DNA from: Hemiscyllium ocellatum
Taxonomy: Eukaryota
Assembly: GCF_020745735.1 (NCBI RefSeq)
Contig: NW_026867491.1
Span: 186,001-250,000, forward strand
DNA: 64,000 bases
Direction: 5' to 3'
Numbering within the stretch: position 1 is the first letter of the stretch; the number at the start of each line of letters is the position of its first letter. The translations under genes and the position numbers were made by a program. Below the pieces are notes generated by a model, which saw only the letters and a program-made list of their open reading frames with translations, had not been told where the DNA came from and ran no database searches. This document shows, in pieces, positions 40,001 to 57,704 of this stretch.

Positions 40001-42790
40001 CACACATTGACGGGAATAATTAAAATATGGGACTCCTTCCAGAGATATGGCTCCAGGATGACAAGGATTGGATCCTCAATATTGAGGAGGTGATCAAATG
40101 GAAAGCAAGACAAAGGGAGAGGGTTAGCACAGGTAATCAAAGCACTGATCACAGGGTAATCTGGTGTCAGCTCCGACTTCAGGTCCTGATTTCTCACCCC
40201 TCCTGGATTTCTGCTGATGCTTTGACCCCTTTTTTTTTACATCTTTCGGAACAATAAGTCAATCCAGACCCCCAATCTCCCAGCCTGTTAACCATCCAGA
40301 CCCCCAATCTCCCAGCCTGTTAACCATCCAGACACCGAGTGTAGTCATAGCAGGGAATAAAACAAGAAATGTGAACCAAAATTAGAAATAAGTAGGTGCT
40401 TGTTCTTAATATTGTTCAATAGTAAGTAAACCAGAAATACTGCTCTTCCAGGATTCCTACAGTGCCTTATTTGAGGAATTCTCTCACCCTCACATAGAGC
40501 TATTAGTACCCACTATGATTTACAACAATACTTATGCCAACAGAAAAAAAGTCTGTTGTCAAATTGACAGAGATATACAGCATAGAAACAGACTTTTTCT
40601 CTCACTCATGCACAAGTCCATGGGGGTGAATTTGCAGAATGATATTTGCTAATGCATTCCATTTTCCACAAAAAATGCACAATCTGCAGGCAGTTAATAC
40701 ATGTAATATTTTGTAAATTTCACATTGGAAATAGAACCAGAATGACTCTAGATTGGGATACTGACCTCGCACCTTGAATGCATTGTTTGAGCTGAGGTGT
40801 CTCCTTTTGTTATAAAGCCGTAAAGTTATCCTGAGAAGGTGCCTTACAGGAAGTTCTGGGATTTACATATTAATGATATCTGCAATCCATTGTAAAAGAT
40901 GAAAGACTTAACGATTCGGGTTTGTTAATATATCATTTCAATGCCAGGACACTGTAATGCTTTTCCAGAAATTCTGTATCTTATGATCTTACACTCCACA
41001 ACCACCTGATGAAGGAGCTGCGCTCCAAATGCTAGTGCTTCCAAATAAACCTGTTGGACGATAACCTGGTGTTGTGTGATTTTTAACTTTGTCCAGGTAA
41101 GGTTTGATTGGCCAGGCCAAATTACCCATAGTGCCCAGGGATGTGCAGGTTAGGGTGGATAGGCGGTGCTAAATTACCCACAGTGCCCAGGGATATGCAG
41201 GTTAGATGTATTAGTCAGAGGGTAAATGTAGAGCAATAGGAGTAGGGGAATGGTGTGGTGAGGTTGCTATTCGGAGGTGGGTGTGGACTTGTTAGAACAG
41301 CGAGGGTTCTCTGAAGAGAAGGGATTTTTGTGAACTGTTCAGGAGGGGGGGGGAAGCGGTGTATGGGAGGAGAGGGGAGGGATGGGTGGAGTGCGGGGGG
41401 AGGAAATTTGTTCACTTGTAGCAACTGGAGTGAACCCAGGGACGGAGCAGACTCTGCAAACTCAGATATGTGTCTTAATTACCCGGGTAAAGAGGGTTGG
41501 AAGGATAGGGTGTTGCTGTTTTCCCGAGTGCGTCAGAGTGTGAGGGGTAACCTGATAGACTTTTTTAAAATCATGAGGGGCATGGATTGGGTAAATAGAT
41601 GAGGTCTTTTCCTTGGGACGGAGAGTCCAGAACTCGAGGATAATAGATTTAAGGTGAGGGTAGGGGGAGGGAGACTGGAAAGAGACCTAAGGGGCAACAT
41701 TTTCATGCAGAGGATGGTGCATGTATGGAATGAGCTGCCAAAGGAAGTGGTGAAGGCAGGTACAATGACAACATTTAAAAGTCATCAGCATGAGTGTATG
41801 AAAAGGGAGGGTTCAAAGGGATATGGGCAAAACGCTGGCAAATGGGACGAGATTAATTTTGGATATCTGTTTGGGCACAGAAGAATTTGACTGAAGTGTC
41901 TGTTTCTGTGCTGTACATCTCAATGACTCTGGCTTTCCACGAATGTTTGTCATGTCTGTATGTTCAGTCTCTCTGGTGGTGGTGTCAATGCCTTGATGGT
42001 TCATTTTGCTTCCCCCCCCACATCCCCACTTCCTGGGAATGTTAACCATTTTGTGCCTGGTTGTTCTTCAAGAACCTGCATTGCAGGCTCCCCTGAATTG
42101 ACATTTTTTTGCTTCCCAAAGTCAGACCTGCTCACTCTCAGCAATATCCCAGTGTTGTGAAAGATATTAAATTTCAGGTGGAGTTATCCAAAACTCAGAG
42201 ATGTCAGTCTTGACGTTTTTGCTTTTCAGCCCCTATCAGATCCTGAATCAACACCTTCAGGAGAATGAGTTAGAGCGGAGGGCGGGAGAGAGAGAGAGAG
42301 TGGGATAGTGCTTTCAATTTTGTGGAATAACAACACAAACAAATTGCTTGTTCTGAATTTTTATTCTAGACGGACAGTAATGAATTTTCTAATCTCTTTT
42401 TACAGAGTATTTGAAGACCTGAAGACGGAAGTTTCAAAATCAACAGATGAAGGACTTATGCCCAAAATGTCGACTCTCCTGCTCCTCGGGTGCTGCCTGA
42501 CCTGCTGAGCTTTTCCAGCGCTGCACATTTCAAATCTGACTCTCCAGCGTCTGCAATCCTCACTTTGAAAGTCACTCATTCCATCGGGACCGCAACTATG
42601 GTTCTGAGAGAAGGAGCAAAGCTGTTTGGTTCCTGTTTCAGTACGTTTTCAGCATCAGTGGGACTGGATGAGAGACCCTACCATTGCAGGGCACTGAGTG
42701 TGGAGCCTGAAGCAGTTTTTTGGCCTGGAAAGAGGAATTCAAGGTGGAGAGAGTCTCTACGTGCGTTTGTGTGTGGCTGAAGCTCCGGCC

Positions 42791-43171
42791 ATGGAGAAAC
42801 CAGAGGAATCCCGCCCCGTGGAGAAACTGTGGAAGTGTGGCGACTGCAAAAAAGGCTTCCGTTTCCCGTCTGCCCTGGAGACTCATCGGCACAGCCACAC
42901 GGGGGAGAGGCCATTCCCCTGCCCTGTCTGTGGGAAGGCCTTTACCCAGGCCTCCAACCTCCAGACCCACCGGCGGGTCCATACCGGGGGGAGGCCCTTC
43001 TGCTGCCCCAAGTGTGGGAAGGCCTTCAGGAATTCCTCCCACTTGCTGACCCACCAGCGGATCCACACGGGGGAGAGGCCCTTCAGCTGCCCCGAGTGTG
43101 GGAAGGCCTTCACCCGCTCCTCCGACCTGCGGAGGCACCAGCGAGTTCATGTGCCATCACAGGGGGATTGA
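42791..43171 (+). CDS. C2H2 zinc-finger protein ZNF4 (4 fingers)
   Basis: Open ORF; gccATGG at 42791; acceptor ttttacag|AG at 42405/42406; C-terminus VPSQGD as in ZNF2; AATAAA at 43710. Confidence 0.85.
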
Positions 43172-45076
43172 AGGAATGATGGCTGAGTGCTGTTATCGAC
43201 TGGACTATCAACCGGGTTCTGGGGACTCCCGGGTTGGATTCCCACCGCGACAGATGGTGGAATTGGAATTTGGTCAGAAATCTGGAGTTTAGAATCTAAC
43301 GGTGAAACCATTGTCGGTGGGGTGGGGGTGGAAGAAGTCCCCATTCTTTTTTAGGGAAACAAACTGTCGTTGTGGGAGAGGATTCACTCAGTCGTCCCAG
43401 CTGCATCCTTTACGTGGTCTAGCCTACACATGACTCCAGATCCGCAGCAGTATGATCGACTCTGCACTGCCCATCCAACTAACTTGGATACAGGATACAA
43501 GTTGAAAATGCTGAGTGAGGCAATACTTTCTCTGGGTTAAGGCTGTACCAAGGATCCAATTCCAAAGGGCAACTTGGTGACCAATAATGAAGAAAGTGAG
43601 GGGTTGGAGGGAGTGTGTGCAATTTGACTGTGAGCTGTTTTTAAAACATTGCTACTTTTTCTACGCCTTTCTGCTGGGAGATTCTGAAGCTGTAACAAAG
43701 TTGGGTCGCAATAAAGTTTACCTGAACTTCCCACCGAGCTCAGACTCTCATTGAGAGCTTGAAATTGCAACATGTTTTTGTTTTAAAACTGCTCATTTCT
43801 TACAGGTGAAAGTGAGAACTGCTGATGCTGGAGATCAGAGTCAAGATTAGAGTGGTGCTGGCAACGCACAGCAGGTCAGGCAGCATCCAAGGAAGCAGGA
43901 AAATCGACATTTTTCGGGCAATGTTGATTTTGCTCCTCAGATTGCTGCCTTACCTGTTGTGCTCATTTCTGACAGCCTCCTGTACCATGTTTCCAATGTT
44001 GTGTATCAGTTGCAGCAGTGAATGAGTAGCCAGTATTGTTAGAAATTGTGAATTTTTCAGGAGTGCAGGTACTGCATCATCCCATTGTCATTGTACAGTT
44101 TCCTGGCAGCACTGGGAAGTGGTGGCTGTGTCCACTGCAAACGATTTGGAGGTGCCGGTGTTGGACAGGGTGGATAAAGTTAAAAATCACACAACACCAG
44201 ATTATCTTCCTTCTGGTTTATTTGGAAGCACTGGCTTTTGGAGTGCTGCTCCTTCATCAGATAGCTGTGGAGCAGAATCATAAGACACAGAATTTATAGC
44301 AAAAGCTGATGGTGTCATGCAACTGCTAAGATAGTGAATAAATCTAGATTGCGGATTAGTCTTTCATCTTTTACCATGGGTTGCAGGTTTCAGTTCATTA
44401 ATATGTAAACCCCAGAACTACTTTGAATTCACCTTCGAGATGGTTTAAGGTTTTTCTAAAAATAGGTGGCATCTCAGCTTAGATCCTGCACAAAAGGTGT
44501 GAGGTTCGAGTCTGTATCCCAATCTTGAATCAGATTGGTTCTATTAACTAAAGTGGGAATTTATACAATATTACATGGATTATAAAATATTACATGCTGT
44601 TTGTGTGCTTTTTGAACAAAATTGAATATATCTGCAAATATAATTTTGCAAATGCAATTTCATCCCATAGACTTATGTGAGACTGTGTGCGCACGAGAGT
44701 GTGCGTGCATGTGAGTTTGTACATGCATGCTAATGAAATGTGTGTTTGGAGTATAAGCTTGTGAGACAGTGTGAGTGTTAGGGTGTGTGTGAGTGTCCGA
44801 GACAGCGTGACAGATGAAGGCAAGGCGTTGCATTTTGCTAAAACAAGGAAGGGCAGAACTCGTCCAGTTAATGGTAGGGCCCTGCGTTGTGTTGGAGAAC
44901 AGAGACACGGTGGGAGAGGGGTTCAGGTATGTGCTGTATATAATGAGACCTTGTAATGCTCAGTACGCCTTTCTTTGGGAAGGCGTCCAATTCTGCAGAA
45001 TTTGTTAATAAAATCTTTGTTCTCTTGAATTTGTCCAGAGCGATTATTTAGAAGTGAATTTTCATTTCTAACAACT

Positions 45077-45091
45077 TGGGGGCTCGTCCGG
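45077..45091 (+). promoter_or_regulatory. Primer-binding site, tRNA-Pro
   Basis: TGGGGGCTCGTCCGG equals the first 15 nt of the MLV-type tRNA-Pro PBS and lies 3 nt after the LTR-terminal CA. Confidence 0.9.
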
Positions 45092-45338
45092 CTCCACACT
45101 CCGGCTGCGGTGGGCTCGAGGAAGGACATCGGAGACGGTGCACCCTACCGAGTTCGGTAGTCCCCGATTCCTTACTCGCCGTCCCGCTTCGCGGCTTGAG
45201 CGAGTGGTATCCGGGAGGCTCAGGAGAACAAAGAGGGAGGAGACTGGCCAGTCATAAAGGGAAAAACGGGCAGGGGATCGAGTAATTTTGGTGCACTGAA
45301 GCCAGGTAGGCACAGATTTCTTCTGTTGCGTTCGGACA

Positions 45339-45620
45339 GGTTTGGTCTCTGATTGATGCGCGAAACTCAAGGATACCTTGTCTTGTCAGGTGTTGTTTAC
45401 GTACCGGAGTCTCTGCGCTCAATCGGTTACCAGGGTTTGGTCTCTGCTTGATGCACAGGACTCAAGGACACCTTGTCTTGTCAGGTGTTGTTTACGTACC
45501 GGAGTCTCTGCGCTCAATCGGTTACCAGGGTTTGGTCTCTGACTGATGCGAAACTCAAGGACACCTTGCCTTGTTTGGTGTTGTTTACGTACCGGAGACT
45601 CTGCGTTCAGTCAGTTACCA
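45339..45620 (+). repeat. Three ~95-bp tandem repeats in the proviral leader
   Basis: Units begin ggtttggtctctg at ~45339, ~45434 and ~45529. Confidence 0.9.
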
Positions 45621-45730
45621 AGGGTTGATTACCTGTTGCCGCTACCCGGTCGATCATAAGGAAATCCGGTGAGTGTGGGATATTCTTGTTTGTCGCACGG
45701 GCGGTTTATTTGCTTGTATTTATCTTCGGC

Positions 45731-47540
45731 ATGGGAAACGGGGGCGCAAGAGTGCCTAAACCGTTGCCTGATGAAGAATCCAAGGGGGTGCCGGATGATA
45801 GCCCGTTAGGACGAATGTTACGTAACTGGGGTCATGGAAAAAGAAAGGGGAAGTCTAGACGAAAAATGGTTAAATTTTGCGAAAAATGGTCACAACAACC
45901 TATTCAAGGGGGTTCTGTTTGGTGGCCCAAATTTGGATCGGACGAGGATTGGGTTTGTCAAATTTTAAATGATCATTTAAAGAATAAATATAATCCAAGA
46001 CTAAAACAGAGAGAAACAGAGAGAGAGAGAGAGAGAGAGAGACATGAGGAGAAAAGGGGATAAAGAAGTAGTGAGACTGTCCCCGCACGGGAGGTCCCGG
46101 TTGGGGAACGGACCACAGGATTTGTTGTAGCCCCATTAAACTCAAATGATATAAGACAACTGAAGTTTTTTTTTTACCAGCAGTTTGCAGTAAGACCGAC
46201 AGAGAGAGAGAGAGAGAGAGAACTGCTTGCAAAACATTTAACTCTCTGTGATTCGGGTTGAATGCACATTTGTTTGTTGGTGATTGAATGAGGAAGTTTT
46301 ATTCACTGGAACTTGAGTTCCAGGATTATTTTAAATGTGATTTTTATGAAAACTTAACATGATTTATTTTCACTATGTGAAGGACAGTTGTAGTTAGGAC
46401 TTCCATAGTTATTATATGAGACCTTGGATTCGGCTATTAGAATTTTTTTAAACTTGAAATGACAAATTATTGTAAGACAGTTATGATTATTTTATGACCT
46501 AAAGTATTGTAATTGAGAAATAGTTAGGAGTACACAAGAAAACTAATTTTGGATCTAAATTAGGATACTAAATTTGGGTGATTACAGTGGGTTTTAAAAT
46601 TTGGGAACTGTATGTATTTTATATTTTAAATATTAAATACTAAATAAATGGATATATATATATGTTTACAGTTTAGGAACAGGATTTAAAGTTAGTCAAG
46701 CATGAATTATTAAAATTGGTGTTTGAGGATATGATAAGTTTGGAACATTACAATATTTCTTAAAAAGTGCCGATAGGGGACAAGGAAATTGGGTTTGTGT
46801 GTGACCCCCTCACCAGTGGGGAGGTCGGAACATTTAAAAGGAAATGACGGTCCTGGATGAGAATCCGATAGGATTGTCAGAACAAATTAATTAATGTTTG
46901 AGGCCCAGTCTATATATGTGGGCTGAGTTAATGTCTATTTTTGAATATACTATTTACTGGGGGAGAAAGGAGACTTATATGGGGATGCTGGACAGGGAAA
47001 GTGTTAATTGAGATTTTTTTAAAAAAAACTAGTAACAGCGCCGGTATTAAGCTTGCCGGACAATTTGGCATGGGAGGGGGATGGTTAGGGGTGAGGACAA
47101 ATATCCCCTTCAGAACCCTAACTGAGACAACCATAATATAGAAAAGTGAAATAATATACTAGACATGCAAAATTTGATAATCCGAGGGATACAAACTTGC
47201 ATCCCCAAACAGCGAAAGTTAGCCAAGGTTTTCGACCTGAGGCAGGGAAAGGACGAGTCTCCCTGTCCATTCTTACACATATTAAGGGAGTCGGTTAGGA
47301 AATGTTCGGGTATAGACCCAGATGGGGAAATAGGATGACGGATGGTAAAGGTTCACTTCGTGACAAAGGCATGGCCTGATATCAGGAAGAAGTTACAGAA
47401 GATAGAGGACGGGAGCGGTAGAAATGAGTCGGAGTTGTTACAGGAGGTTCAGAAGGTATTTGTATAGAGAGGCATAATGGTGGAGGAACGGAAGGCTAAG
47501 ATACTGGTAGCAGTAGTATGGGAGGACTGTATGAAAGACA
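45731..47540 (+). pseudogene. gag: Disrupted gag (MA 45731-46010, AT-rich spacer, CA remnants ~46765-47540)
   Basis: MG myristoylation start; SPLGRML..WWPKFGSDEDWVCQ; SLYMWAELMSILNILFTG; MHR-like RQGKDESPCPFL; HFVTKAWPDIRKKLQKIE. Confidence 0.85.
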
Positions 47541-47876
47541 AAAGGAGTTGGATAAATACGGTGTTTATCTAAACCTGAATATTTATGTCTGTGTGGGCCG
47601 CCCCCCCCTGTAGGAATTTTGTGTTGGTGAAGATTTATGTGTGTCTTTGTGTGTGCAAATTTGATTGTAAAAAAAAAATAGTCTCTGTGGATGTGAGAAT
47701 TTGTGTTTGTGTATGGATTTTTTTTTATAAAAAAGGGCTTCTCAGCTAACAAGCAGTTTAACACTTTGTGGTCTGGCTTGAATTCATCTGTTTGTTAGTG
47801 CATGAATGTTTGAGTGTTTGTCACCTAGAGCGTGAGTCATGAGATATGTGGCTTCGCTGTTTCTCGTTTACTCCAC

Positions 47877-48161
47877 CAGGGATTCCTGACTCAGACCCCT
47901 CCACTCGATATCCACCTCCACAAAGTGGAACCGGGAGACTGGGTTTTGATAAAATCCTGGAAACCGAAGAAACTCCAATCACTCTGGGAGGGACCGTTTC
48001 AGGTGTTACTCACCACCGAAGTTGCCATACGAACAAAAGAAAAAGGGTGGACTCACGCCGCCAGACTAAAAGGCCCGGTGTCGCCGCCCAAAGAGGACTC
48101 TTGGTCGTGTGAGGCCGGTGATGGACTGTTGGTGGTGAAGTTAAAGAAACATCAAAAATGA
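47877..48161 (+). pseudogene. pol: Integrase C-terminal (GPF/GPY) remnant of pol
   Basis: HKVEPGDWVLIKSW..WEGPFQVLLTTEVAIRTKEKGWTH. Confidence 0.85.
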
Positions 48162-50480
48162 ACTCTCTTGGGACTCTTTTGCTACATACTGTATTATTAT
48201 TTGCCTTCCTTTTAGTGGGGAAATTGACTGGTAACTGTGATAAATGCCGCTCTAGGGTTCGGGTGTGGGACACTGAGTTAGACTTACGCGGATCTTTTGT
48301 ATCCCACTCCTCTTATGCAAATAATACTCGCTGTTATGACATATACTCACGCCAAAAGTGCTGGGAAAAAGGAAAACTATACTATCAAGTAAAAAACAGG
48401 GGATATCTCGGTCTGTCTAGGGTTAGGGCCTATCATTGCCCCTTTATGAATTACGAATGGTTGTGTATGTCAGCAGACAGTTTACAGGGACATGCTGCAT
48501 TACCGGAAACAGACAAAAATAGAACTAAAAGGGAATGTGCCAAATGCGGCGCTATAATTCAACTGGGAGATCCTAACTTCTTCTCCCTTTGCCATGATGA
48601 GGAATCACGGGAGGAATGTTGGGAGGATGGGAAATTGTATTATCAAATGTTAAATAAGGGATATATTGGATGGCCTGAGGGGAGGGTCCATGAATGTATT
48701 TGGGAAGAACACGAATGGGTCTGCATTAAAAAAAAGACAGTTGGGATAAGGCTAACAGGCCGTGCGACAAATGCTGCCAAACTGTGAAATGGGGAGACCA
48801 TGTCTTTCCGGGGTCTTTTGTGTTTCACACTAAAATAAGTGATGCCTGTTACAACCGGGAGAAAATGATACCATGTTGGGAGGATGGGGAACATTACTAC
48901 CAGGTATTCAGCCTGGGATATTACACGAGTGGAAATATAGACTGTCCACTTATGGAATAATGGCTCTGTATCAGTTTTACTGGCTCGGCAGCGGACCACT
49001 TTGACCGGGTTAAGGAAATATATCCCGGGTTAGAGAAATCTATTCCAAATTACGATGCCAGAATAGCCGCCTCAGCCAAGGTTTCCTCCCTCTATGAGGA
49101 CATTGAGAAACGGCTTACTCTTCCTGATGTTGTGAAAAATCTCTTTATTGACTTCGTCTCAAATTGCCAAAATTTTAAATGTGACGAGCTGTTGGGTTTG
49201 TGGGGGTCTGCATATGACCGAGCAATGGCCGTGGACAGGGGAGAGTTTGGATGTTCAGGAAATCCTTGAATACAATTGGACTTACTCCAAAAACAGAATT
49301 TATCAAGTCTGGAAATTGCAGAATACCCCGATGGGCCACTTCTGCATTGGGAAAAAAGGGTCCCGCCCAGTTGGTGACAGCCCCTGTCAGCGGGTCTTGA
49401 ATCTCACCACGGACACTTGGTGGCCCCGACCCTTGGGTTGGTTTCTCACCAAACAACCCCTTGGGTTGTCTATCACCCAACAAGGGGATCTTAACTGTAG
49501 GCGGTTGCATCCCACCTCTGATTCCTGGAATTGCAGTGGTTCTGGCCCTTATGCGGGAATGCCGGGAATTAGAGAGGCATGGGACGGTGTTGCCAGGGAC
49601 AGCGGAGGGGGTCCGGCTCCTGATGGTTTATTTTGGATTTGTAGGGATCTGGCGTATTCCAGGTTGCCCGAGAAATGGGGTGGCTTATGCTTCCTCGGTA
49701 TAGTCAGACCGGAGTTCTTTCCCCTCTCACGTGATCAAGGGGCTGACCTGGGGGTTAAGTTGTTCGACTCCCTGCAACGGAGGTCCGGAAAGCTAGCACG
49801 GAAGCGTAGGAGTGCTAGTCAGTGGAATGTCCACCAGTACGGAGACATCCACTTGGCCAAGTGGGGCGCAGATTGGCCACCGTCCCGTATCATTGAGTAT
49901 TATGGGCCGGCAAGTTGGGCTCAGGATGGCTCTTGGGGTTACAGAACTCCAATTTATATGCTTAATCGCATCATTCGCTTGCAGGCGGTGATGGAAATAA
50001 TCACCAACAAAACCGCCTTCGCATTGGAATTACTGGCTAGACAGCAGTCTCAAATGAGGGCTGCAATATATCAGAATCGTCTTGCTTTAGACTACCTGCT
50101 TGCCTCTGAAGGGGGTGTCTGCGGGAAGTTTAACACGACAAATTGTTGTCTGGAGATAGACGATAACTACGAGGCTGTCCTAAAAAAAAATCACCCGGGA
50201 CATCCGTAAAATAGCCCATGTACCTGTCCAGACGTGGCGACCTATAGGGGACGCTAGTTGGTGGAACACGCTTTTTGGGGGTGGCTGGTGGCGCATGGCA
50301 TTAATAATGATGGTGGGTGTCGGGGCCCTGTTCCTCGTTATTCCCTGTCTGGTCCCCTGTGCTAGAGTGTTGATCCAACGCCACATCGCCCAGATGCAAG
50401 CCATTGCCATACCCCAACATGGTACTCATGAACTTAAAGTTCTGCTGTTGAAAAGACAGAAGGACTTCCTTGAGCCGTAA
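48158..50480 (+). pseudogene. env: ERV3-like env with ~5 frameshifts and one stop; open sub-ORFs 48158-48787 and 49148-50209
   Basis: Signal peptide, CWVC, RKRR furin site, YYGPASWAQDGSWGYRTPIYMLNRIIRLQAV, ISD YQNRLALDYLLA and CX6CC. The TM helix lies after a frameshift in the A9 run at 50182-50190. Confidence 0.9.
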
Positions 50481-50531
50481 TTCAGCCGATTCTGTTACGC
50501 ATGCACATCTTAAAAAGAAAAAGGGTGGAAT

Positions 50532-51167
50532 TGTGAGAGTGAGATCTGGCTTAATAAGAATTATTAAGATGTGCATGGCATTATAATCTTTAAACGTGAG
50601 CATTATCATATTGAATAAGCTAAACTTTTTGCTGCTTTAAAACCCAGATTTCTGATGCTATTAAGCTCTCTTTGTATAACCATTTCTGTACTTAAAATAT
50701 TGTCAGCATTGAACCCTCAGAATGGGGAAGTGTTAACAGTTAATAAGAAACAAGCTACTTGGTGCAAGGGTCGGCTTTGTGTTAACAGAATGGAGAAACA
50801 AATCCAGACATCTGCTGATGTATTGTGAAACCACAGGACAAGAATAAAATGTGAGATGTCTGTTGACCTGCTTTGAACCTGCTGCAGAACCACAGAGCAG
50901 AAGAACGACCCTGTGTTTTTCTATGTGGTCAGGATTTGAGACAATGAGAGCATAACGGAAAATTACTGCTAGTTTAGAATGTGAACCCCGTGACTCTTTG
51001 GAGTCAAAGAGGGGAGGGACTTGTGCTGTATATAATGAGAGACCTTGTAATGCTCAGTACGCCTTTCTTTGGGAAGGCGTCCAATTCTGCAGAATTTGTT
51101 AATAAAATCTTTGTTCTCTTGAATTTGTCCAGAGCGATTATTTAGAAGTGAATTTTCATTTCTAACA
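50532..51167 (+). mobile_element. Complete 3' LTR (636 bp)
   Basis: Follows the PPT; TGTGAGA...TCTAACA ends; TATATAA at ~51029; AATAAA at 51101. Confidence 0.9.
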
Positions 51168-51734
51168 AGGTACATAAAGTTAAAAATCTCTCAACACCAG
51201 GTTATCGTCCAACTGGTTTATTTGGAAGCATGGGCTTTGAGTGCAGCTCCTTCATGGGATGTTTGTAGAACAGGATCATAAGACACAACTACCTGATGAA
51301 GGAGCAGCGCTCCAAAAGCTTATGTTTGCAAATGAGCCTGTTGGAGTATCACCTGGTGTGGTGTGAATTTTAACTTCGTACACCCCAGTCCAACACCAAC
51401 ATCTCCAAATCGGGGACATAGTTCTTTGAAAGTTGCATCATTGGTAGACAGGGTGGTGAAGGAGGCGTTTAGCACACTTTCCTTCATTGTTCACACCGTT
51501 CAGTGCAGGAGGTGGGACATCACGTTGAGGTTGTACAGGATATTGGTGAGACCACGTGTAGAGTACTGAGTACATTTCTGGTCGCCCTATCGACGACCAC
51601 AAGTTGTCAGGTAACCTTGTTTCGATTTATAAAGTCATGGGGTGTGTAGGAAAGGTAAATGTCACAGGGGGGAAGAAACGGTGCATCTCCCCTTTTTTTT
51701 TTACTTCTCTTGGCATTTGGACACTTCAATTCTG

Positions 51735-52016
51735 TCAGTAACAGCATCTCCAGAGAGCATACTGCGCACGCTCGCCGTTACGAGGATGAAACTGCGCATG
51801 CTCCTCGCAAAGCATGCGTCACGGCTTTCTTTTGGTGGACCAATCGGAAGCCCTGGAGGACCGGAAGGATACCAGTCCTCCTGCCAATCAGAGCCTTCCT
51901 ATTGTCTGAATCCAGAAGCTGGAACACGAGCTTCGGAAGCTGCTGCTCCTCTCTCTGAATGAAGATTGAGTTTGCTCCAGACTGTAACCTCCTCACTCCG
52001 TCACCCATCTGTGAGT
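51735..52016 (+). promoter_or_regulatory. Type B promoter/first exon with no dedicated ZNF exon; donor GTGAGT at 52011
   Basis: Paralogue of 15790-16106 and 36680-37014. Confidence 0.65.
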
Positions 52017-52838
52017 ACGGCACTCTCTTCTCAACTCCTTTTCCTTTTATTTTCATTCTTGGATTCAATCTTTCACTTCCCTTTCCTTTCGGTTGCTGCA
52101 AATGAATGCACGGCGTGGACCGATTCGGGACAAGGTTTTTATAAACAGAGAGTGGTTCATGTATGGGATGAATGTCCAGAGGAAGTGGTGGATGCACGGA
52201 CAGATGCAACGTTTGACCGACATTTGGAGAAGTACATGAATAGGGAAGGTGCGGGGGGATACGGGCCAAACACTAGCAAGTGGCACTAGTTTAGTTTGAG
52301 AACATACTCAGCGTGGAATAGTTGGGCTGAAGGGTCCGTTTCTGTGCTGTCTGACCGTAACTGTTCTGTTGTGGTCTTAAAACCATTTTCTTGCCTTGTA
52401 CCTGCTTCTAACACACAAATCACTCAAAAAAAAACCCCACCTCAACCACACAACATAAATATCCACACTTTGTTCAAAAATCAGAGGAACTCAGCCTTGA
52501 ATATATTCAATAACCCCCCTAACTGCAGGAAGACATCCCCACTTCTAATCCCAGTTCATTTTGTGATTTATACCACTTGCCTTGCTGATTGCTTGCTGCA
52601 CTTGTCTGACAACTGGCAGTGACTGGTGTAGAAGGACGCTGAGGCCTCTTTGTACATCCACACATCATTCCTGATGAAGGGCTCGGGCCTGAGATGTCAA
52701 TTCTCCTGGTCCTCAGATGCTGCCTGTCTTGCTGTGCTTTTCCAACCCCAAACGTTTCGACTCTGATTCCAGCAGCTGCAGGTCTCACTTTCTCTACATT
52801 GGATGCTGAGGGTTAACCTTATAAATGTTTAAGGGGCA

Positions 52839-56048: not shown

Positions 56049-56556
56049 TCTTTTTCGCCTGGAGGTTTTACTAGCTACCTGATGAAGGTGCAGAGCTCTG
56101 AAAGTTCAAACTTCTAAACAAATCTAATGGACTACAACCTGGTGATGTGTGATTTTTTTTTAAACTTTGTACACCCCAGCCCAACACTGGCATCTGTATA
56201 TTGTAACTTGATTGTTTTAGGGAAGTTCTACAGAAACTAGAATGATCTGTTCTGAATTCCTGTCATGTGCAGGCAGCAATGACTTTTGTAATCCCCTTTT
56301 TCACAGGATATGAGAAGAGCAGCTTTGCAGGTAGAGCTCCCCAATGGAGTACCATGTGAAGGTCTGATAGAGCCCCTTGATTCGTGGGACAGGAGAGACG
56401 TCCCTCTTTCAGTCCAGAAGGGGAAAATTCTTTGAACGTTTTTGTCTGCTTCAGTAGGCTCTTAAAGTATCGTCTTCACCTGAACCACAGGGGCACGTGC
56501 CTGAGCCAGTTTGCCCACTGTGGGGAAAGGAAGTCTCAGGAGGCATTCCGCACGCC

Positions 56557-57567
56557 ATGGAGAAACCGTGGAAGTGTGGGGATTGCGGGAAAGGATTCCG
56601 CTCCCCCTCCGTGCTGGAGATCCACTGCCGTGTCCACACTGGGGAGAGGCCGTTCAGCTGCTCCGAGTGCGGGAAGGGCTTCACCCAATCGTCTATCCTG
56701 CTGACCCACCAGCGTTTCCACACCGGGGAGCGGCCCTTCACCTGCCCCGTCTGCGGCAAGTGCTTCACCCAGTCGTCCACCCTGCTGACCCACCAGCGGG
56801 TCCACACCAGGGAGCGGCCCTTCACCTGCTCCATCTGCGGCAAGGGCTTCACCGACTCCTCCCACCTGCTGACCCACCAGCGGGTCCACACCGGGGAGAG
56901 GCCGTTCAGCTGCTCGGTCTGCGGCAAGAGCTTTACCCAGTTGTCCAACCTGCTGCGGCACCAGCGGCTCCACACCGGGGAGCGGCCCTTCACTTGCTGC
57001 GTCTGTGGCAAGGGCTTCACCGACTCCTCCCACCTGCTGACCCACCAGCGGGTCCACACCGGGGAGAGTCCATTCAGCTGCTCGGTCTGCGGCAAGAGCT
57101 TTACCCAGTCGTCCAACCTGCTGCAGCACCAGCAGGTCCACACCGGGGAGTGGCCCTTCACCTGCTCTGTCTGCGGCAAGGGCTTCGCCCGCTCGTCCGA
57201 CCTGCTAACCCACCAGCGGGTCCACACGGGGGAGCGGCCGTTCAGCTGCTCGGTCTGCGGCAAGAGCTTCACCCGCTCGTCCACCCTGCTGCGGCACCAG
57301 CGGCTTCACACCGGGGAGCGTCCCTTCACCTGCTCCGTCTGCGGCAAGAGCTTCTCTCACTCGTCCACCCTGCTGCGGCACCAGCGGCTTCACACCGGGG
57401 AGCGGCCCTTCACCTGCTCCGTCTGCGGCAAGGGCTTCACCCAGTCGTCCCACCTGTTCTCACACCAGCAGGTCCACACCGGGGAGCGGCCCTTCACCTG
57501 CCCCGTCTGCGGGAGGGGCTTCGCTTCCTCTCAGCACCTGCTGCGGCACCAGCGGGGGCACAAGTGA
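56557..57567 (+). CDS. C2H2 zinc-finger protein ZNF5 (12 fingers; more divergent subfamily)
   Basis: Open ORF; gccATGG at 56557; acceptor tttttcacag|G at 56306/56307; CSVCGK-type fingers. Confidence 0.92.
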
Positions 57568-57704
57568 CGGGGCCAGCCGCTGTGAGTCACCGCCCAGGGC
57601 TGAACCCTGGGTGGGATGGGGGAGGGTCACTGCAGTTGCTGTGCTCTCATCCCCTTGGCATCCAGTGGTTCTGCGAGCCTGCGACTGCGCATTTCCTCCT
57701 GAAG

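Follow-up and report, generated by a model that had tools for sequence, protein, structure and literature searches.

The locus examined here raises the question of whether an open frame inside an endogenous retrovirus (ERV) encodes a secreted factor that blocks a viral receptor, or is what remains of a decaying env gene. The window, which is the whole 64,000-nt stretch of Hemiscyllium ocellatum DNA that was analysed, contains a frame from ATG 48158 to TGA 48787. Translation confirms the 209 aa given for it by the sequence-only reading, which proposed the product as a candidate receptor-blocking factor. It is quite likely that this frame is a leftover of neutral decay and not a host antiviral gene.

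The frame lies in a provirus at 44930–51167, bounded by 5-bp AGGTA duplications (Table 1). With its TG..CA LTRs, target-site duplication (TSD), many copies and defective gag-pol, the provirus belongs to the non-autonomous class I ERVs. An origin as a processed pseudogene was rejected, since the 3' LTR is whole through U5, no poly(A) tail is present, and the TSD is 5 bp. The 5' LTR consists of the final 144 nt only. It begins eight bases ahead of the TATA-like box, which indicates that ~490 nt of U3 are missing. The truncated LTR opens with TGTG like the full LTR, right behind the TSD. Either integration occurred at an internal end, or a deletion took place between 4-nt microhomologies. Two U3 types are present in the ERV family (compared region 50532–51030; L031, L041, L066, L087, and L095 concerned), and the window carries the minority type. 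L031 apparently has one U3 type at each end.

Table 1. Positions of the proviral features in the window.
Feature	Position	Strand	Basis
5' target-site duplication AGGTA	44925..44929	+	Single AGGTA without provirus in 11/11 fetched paralogous flanks (94–98% identical)
5' LTR remnant: TATA-like box, R, U5 only	44930..45073	+	0 mismatches and one 2-nt gap against 3' end of 3' LTR; abuts TSD
Primer-binding site, presumably tRNA-Pro-like	45077..45091	+	Sequence
Three ~95-nt leader repeats, each with an upstream ATG (45356, 45451, 45546)	45339..45621	+	Sequence
Candidate env splice donor CCG/GTGAGT at 45669	45666..45674	+	Exact in 45/51 other copies; use inferred
Degraded internal region: diverged gag remnant, pol almost wholly lost	45955..47877	+	32% identity to gag residues 290–502 of long-pol sister copy
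Candidate env splice acceptor ...CTCCACCAG/ at 47879	47850..47879	+	Pyrimidine-rich upstream sequence in 43/51 other copies; use inferred
Integrase C-terminal remnant with 5-codon upstream ORF at 48121	47880..48161	+	Pfam MLVIN_C, E 4e-8
209-aa frame: predicted signal peptide, module 1, module 2, 16-aa out-of-frame tail	48158..48787	+	Translation; hydropathy
Module 1: putative six-Cys suppressyn-type receptor-binding domain, RBD-R1 class	48236..48469	+	phmmer to 8oui_D (209-aa ORF alone), E 3.6e-4; model pLDDT 77
Module 2: same six Cys, ~14 residues shorter in N-terminal hairpin region	48536..48727	+	Alignment
A-run breaking env frame; hot spot, four run lengths among copies	48728..48735	+	Frameshift here in 18/40 copies (codons 186–187)
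Module 3, beyond 209-aa frame, interrupted by TAA 48958	48763..48975	+	Alignment
Rest of env: CWVC, RKRR, CX7CC, TM; broken at ~49152 and ~50182	48976..50480	+	Sequence; sister-copy alignment
Complete 3' LTR, minority U3 type	50532..51167	+	LTR comparison among copies
3' target-site duplication AGGTA	51168..51172	+	Pairs with 5' AGGTA

The gag remnant gave no extended DNA match to the long-pol sister copy, and this internal region was likely taken from another, more abundant family. In three runs, contig depth over 46100–47800 is several-fold to ~tenfold above that of env, which suggests that this degraded gag region is shared by a non-autonomous family of larger size. Precisely at the acceptor AG (47850–47880), the degraded middle gives way to sequence common with the long-pol copies. 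Eight copies (L062, L064, L065, L067–L069, L082, and L088) have another upstream type with its own acceptor-like stretch, and they also switch at the acceptor AG. The non-autonomous type probably arose as a chimera, with two families meeting at the env acceptor.

The provirus is located inside a segmentally duplicated C2H2 zinc-finger cluster (42698–43171, 51740–52020, 56548–57603). All 11 fetched paralogous flanks represent the empty site, so the insertion is younger than the duplication of 98% identity. The empty-site joint 44924–51168 is seen in contigs of X1, X4, and X9, and paralogous flanks explain it equally well. Insertional polymorphism was dropped as its explanation, because flanks with 94–98% identity carry the same empty site in the assembly. 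For the occupied 5' junction, no bridging contig was found in X2, X4, X6, or X9, and contigs cannot show absence. The neighbours of the provirus include one zinc-finger exon and, ~600 nt downstream of the intact 3' LTR, a promoter-like stretch with CCAAT, TGCGCATGC motifs, and a donor-like GTGAGT near 52011. A cis effect of the provirus on the downstream gene is possible, and so is read-through from the upstream zinc-finger gene into the provirus.

The 209-aa frame has a hydrophobic N-terminus (Kyte-Doolittle 19-mer maximum 2.1 at residue 3), and no second hydrophobic stretch is seen past residue 30 (maximum 0.83). Its twelve cysteines fall into two sets of six, and its final 16 residues are out of the env frame. 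The predicted product is thus a signal peptide, judged from hydropathy, with receptor-binding-type domains and no TM anchor. The sequence-only reading described the same architecture with two complete modules. This description suits module 1, which appears to be a whole receptor-binding-type domain by sequence and predicted fold, while module 2 is a variant that lacks ~14 residues compared with module 1 and with the modules of single-module relatives. The missing residues likely fall in the beta1R/beta2R hairpin.

A Pfam search with the 209-aa frame gave no match, a search for it among longer proteins found nothing, and the ESM Atlas yielded no usable match. When the three modules and four fish relatives are combined into a profile, the PDB yields one match, suppressyn (8oui_D, 44–114; E 5.1e-9). 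The model of module 1 was built with 23 sequences. Foldseek places suppressyn first and syncytin-1 second for this model (E 0.01, probability 1.00). VIA-align gives the same order, with suppressyn at Z 8.0 (rmsd 2.4 Å over 67 residues) and syncytin-1 at Z 3.6. The single-sequence model of modules 1 and 2 together reaches a pLDDT of 33, so the fold evidence concerns module 1. The profile match and the predicted fold of module 1 indicate that the modules are homologous to the receptor-binding domain of suppressyn. A fold in common with suppressyn does not give the receptor here.

The module profile matches 34 of the 122 stored proteins: the two-module ORF, one family fragment, and 32 other Envs. 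These 32 Envs have one module each, against three in this ERV family, and the remaining 88 proteins do not match. Nearly all named homologues are ERV3-1 Env-like. Sister copies are co-linear across the three modules except for small deletions, and 37 of 52 copies keep the three exact core motifs. Pieces over the three-module region are also found in the run of a second organism (X9). A low-depth contig joint at 48317–48606 (X1, X4, X5) skips 288 nt, about one module length, with 30 other letters between. It may reflect a family variant that has fewer modules, or cross-mapping among the repeats.

Based on the alignment to a natural uninterrupted sister copy, env of this copy has only four breaks: at the A-run 48728–48735, at TAA 48958, at ~49152, and at the A-run around 50182. 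Two of the four are thus in A-runs, and all are downstream of module 2, as had been proposed. Two more lesions had been placed at ~48805 and ~48890. The alignment contains neither, and a single open frame spans both positions from just past the A-run to TAA 48958, a stop common to 21/40 copies. The four lengths of the A-run 48728–48735 among copies are as expected of a slippage hot spot. The caution that a 630-nt stretch can stay open by chance proved justified: given four breaks, the probability that the first 186 of 769 codons are spared is 0.33. The longest open stretch of this copy, 342 codons, is located further downstream than the 209-aa frame.

Two queries, the ORF (67 candidates, 40 of them scored) and a TM stretch (70 candidates, 40 scored), were used to find copies of the ERV family. 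After fetching 39 + 14 regions and dropping L093, which duplicates L050, and L089, a cut and inverted neighbour of L049, 52 copies including the window were available. L049 and L089 are arranged tail to tail in inverted orientation (G000:C4:69003078-69018200), and the 3' env/LTR region of one of the two is cut. The family thus has at least 52 copies, mostly non-autonomous, with 5-bp TSDs and an ERV3/EnvR-type env. The median LTR-LTR divergence is 0.48% (range 0–2.6%; 44 pairs with >300 nt aligned). The env frame is uninterrupted in two of the 52 copies, and some copies have long gag and pol frames. In most copies, gag-pol is degraded and env is broken, and many lesions are common to several copies. 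The nearest relative of the window copy differs from place to place along env, consistent with a mosaic. From this pattern, we infer copying in trans and recombination among copies. Some insertions were multiplied later by segmental duplication and have flanks in common (L036/L037/L039, L040/L042/L043, L057/L059/L060, and L083–L086), so the copy number overstates integrations.

The sequence-only reading suggested comparing ORF retention and dN/dS between this segment and the rest of env across copies. Codons 1–185 are open in 25 of 52 copies and broken in 27, versus 18, 21, and 25 open copies for three downstream segments of equal length. Apparent breaks before codon 25 in L066, L090, and L095 were disregarded, as they were put down to the effect of a variant signal peptide on the alignment, directly seen for L066. 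Distinct lesion sites in codons 1–185 number 13 of 55, against 13.2 expected (P 0.54), and private lesions 9 of 38 (P 0.57). In the first 40 copies, which were picked by likeness to this very segment, it is open in 18 versus 14, 11, and 16 for the downstream segments, and contains 7 lesion sites versus 12, 19, and 10. In the 12 copies found by the TM query only, the open counts are 7, 4, 10, and 9. The pN/pS values come from simple counting without transition correction, using variant counts and pairwise values rather than branches. Singletons give 0.94 in codons 26–186 versus 0.49–0.63 elsewhere. Distinct variants give 0.49 versus 0.43–0.58, a constraint presumably carried over from the replicating virus. 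Neither preferential retention nor purifying selection on the ORF is seen across paralogues in lesion sites or pN/pS; on the genomic side, other copies disrupt the segment as often as the downstream env.

These counts also bear on a possible effect of the family as a whole, similar to that of FeLIX. Several truncated copies, most of them with the 5' LTR complete, would secrete two- or three-domain fragments that jointly interfere with the receptor, and the window copy would be a minor or silent member. In 19/52 copies, the signal peptide and modules 1–2 are open and the first break falls between module 2 and the furin site, ahead of TM. Most sister copies have the full ~647-nt 5' LTR, and FeLIX is described as being encoded at several endogenous FeLV loci (PMC11019853). 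However, with one copy per insertion among those with degraded gag-pol (n = 36; L062, of the other acceptor type, kept in), the segment is open in just 13, against 11, 11, and 20 for the downstream segments. Of the 30 copies broken at codons 186–266, just 11 are open upstream. Among open degraded copies, pN/pS in the segment is no lower than elsewhere (0.41 versus 0.32–0.51). Such a family-level effect is improbable, but it is more plausible than co-option of this copy or an assembly error.

Co-option of this locus means that the provirus expresses a secreted two-domain analogue of suppressyn, which occupies the receptor of the family. The domain composition without TM would suit this, as suppressyn itself is described as a 160-aa secreted signal peptide and truncated SU, conserved in simians (PMC3598002). 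A TATA-like box is retained together with the splice donor and acceptor, whose survival had been pointed out correctly. However, both splice signals are intact in 23/27 copies with a broken N-terminus versus 19/24 with an open one. Since they are kept equally, they are uninformative about the 209-aa ORF; they are the ordinary signals of the ERV family. The 45668–47880 joint is absent from the short-read contigs of four runs, but as none of these is recorded as RNA, its absence counts neither for nor against expression. The 5' LTR has no U3, yet suppressyn is reported to be driven by an ancestral LTR promoter (bioRxiv 2020.08.23.263665), and four upstream ATGs (45356, 45451, 45546, 48121) precede the frame. 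Neither the retention nor the constraint is specific to the segment, and among its few window-private changes, some of them next to an in-frame indel, nonsynonymous ones prevail (4.5 N : 0.5 S). Co-option of this locus is therefore very unlikely.

It is just as hard to believe that the A-run frameshift ending the ORF is a homopolymer error of the assembly: A-runs host two of the four breaks and the short-read contigs are family mixtures unable to vouch for this locus, but the frameshift recurs with the same 209-aa frame in 6/40 copies (four independent insertions, three copies having a common flank), at the A-run, short-read contigs of three runs contain a run-length variant for just a part of their depth, the assembly is accurate elsewhere, as judged from paired LTRs with 0 mismatches over 647 nt in some copies, and TAA 48958 would end the frame in module 3 anyway.

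The 209-aa frame makes up the first (5') quarter of env, a broken gene of EnvR/ERV3 type, in one member of a young ERV family with many copies. Under neutral decay, it likely remained open by chance: this copy is young, and the first break hit a slippage-prone A-run just behind module 2. Intact relatives probably copied defective templates in trans, with recombination between the two. Env lesions would then be inherited or newly arise at A-runs, without selection. The 5' U3 of this copy was presumably lost at or after integration, and the copy is therefore likely transcribed weakly or silent. If a product is made at all, its secretion is likely, and it might as a side effect bind the receptor of the family. 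The architecture of a soluble blocker, the four independent insertions with the same frame, the 19/52 copies first broken between module 2 and the furin site, the counts in the first 40 copies, and possible read-through from the upstream zinc-finger gene can be set against neutral decay. Besides, a young useful locus would give little dN/dS signal.

Of the suppressyn-like blocking product proposed from the sequence, the architecture and the homology of the receptor-binding domain (E 5.1e-9) are retained. The blocking role itself is disfavoured by the lack of any sign of selection and by a segment broken equally often. The fragment appears to be built like a double suppressyn, and the case for a host gene at this locus is weak. 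It illustrates that a family-wide control is needed when an N-terminal env fragment is open and has splice signals. The triple-domain Env is the real, if modest, novelty of the locus. The receptor-binding fold of suppressyn and syncytin-1, as predicted here, occurs in ERV Envs of sharks and rays, and is triplicated in this family. Its natural one-, two-, and three-domain forms offer a way to ask how domain repeats contribute to binding. Should any truncated copy turn out to be expressed, fish would have a parallel to suppressyn. It can be speculated, as a rather unlikely scenario, that slippage behind domain 2 of the three-domain Env repeatedly yields secreted two- or three-domain analogues of suppressyn, which occupy the receptor and damp germ-line reinfection. 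If true, these slippage-made soluble fragments would be a fish counterpart of suppressyn caught before fixation.

The closest relatives in sequence are ERV3-1-like Envs of Chiloscyllium, Hemitrygon, and Hypanus (P0002, P0007, P0009, P0003) and of Hemiscyllium (P0006). P0006 is a near-identical fragment of this ERV family starting at module 3, while the Envs of Chiloscyllium and the rays have a single module each. According to Hotzel (bioRxiv 2024.03.17.585361), the EnvR supergroup is defined by CX7-9CC, and its groups 3 and 4, from tetrapods, have a single RBD-R1. Like Envs of EnvR group 3 (syncytin-Mar1 and avian ERV3-like Env), as described there, the Env analysed here has an N-terminal RBD-R-type domain and no SDGGG motif. 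The TM motif is present as CX7CC in the 357-aa frame of the window. The CXXC, located ~220 residues before the SU C-terminus in group 3, is at codon 342 here, 203 residues ahead of the furin site at 545. Unlike group 3, three RBD-R1-type modules are present, and the CXXC is ~316 residues past the first Cys, compared with one module and 152–160 residues in the relatives; the likely host is a cartilaginous fish and not a tetrapod. Based on the TM motif and the CXXC-to-furin distance, this Env fits EnvR group 3, but it contains three RBD-R1-type repeats.

A triplicated form of this domain was found neither in the main text of the Hotzel preprint, which surveys this domain class, nor in literature searches. 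Internal duplication of the RBD-R sheet is a described route of Env evolution, and the RDR viruses, with a duplicated RBD-R2 (Hotzel, bioRxiv 2024.03.17.585361), resemble the present case in this respect. As described, RDR Envs differ in having two repeats, the SDGGG motif, and no beta1R/beta2R hairpin, and they belong to the main Env group rather than to EnvR.

FeLIX and Refrex-1 of cats, as described, are likewise secreted truncated Envs from a multi-copy ERV family. The source of FeLIX, FeLV, has a solved RBD of MLV type, which Hotzel classes as Ig-like RBD-C. For FeLIX and Refrex-1, expression and restriction were shown, while the product of the 209-aa ORF is a prediction. The same difference applies to suppressyn, for which ASCT2 binding, LTR drive, and purifying selection were shown. 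Suppressyn and syncytin-1 are reported to bind overlapping sites on ASCT2 (PMC13709493), and an omega of 0.38 is given for suppressyn in hominoids (bioRxiv 2020.08.23.263665). In architecture, suppressyn (the ERVH48-1/HERV-Fb1 env product; PDB 8OUI chain D) is the nearest counterpart: it likewise consists of a signal peptide and a truncated SU without TM, and it has one six-Cys receptor-binding domain homologous to the two predicted in the 209-aa ORF.
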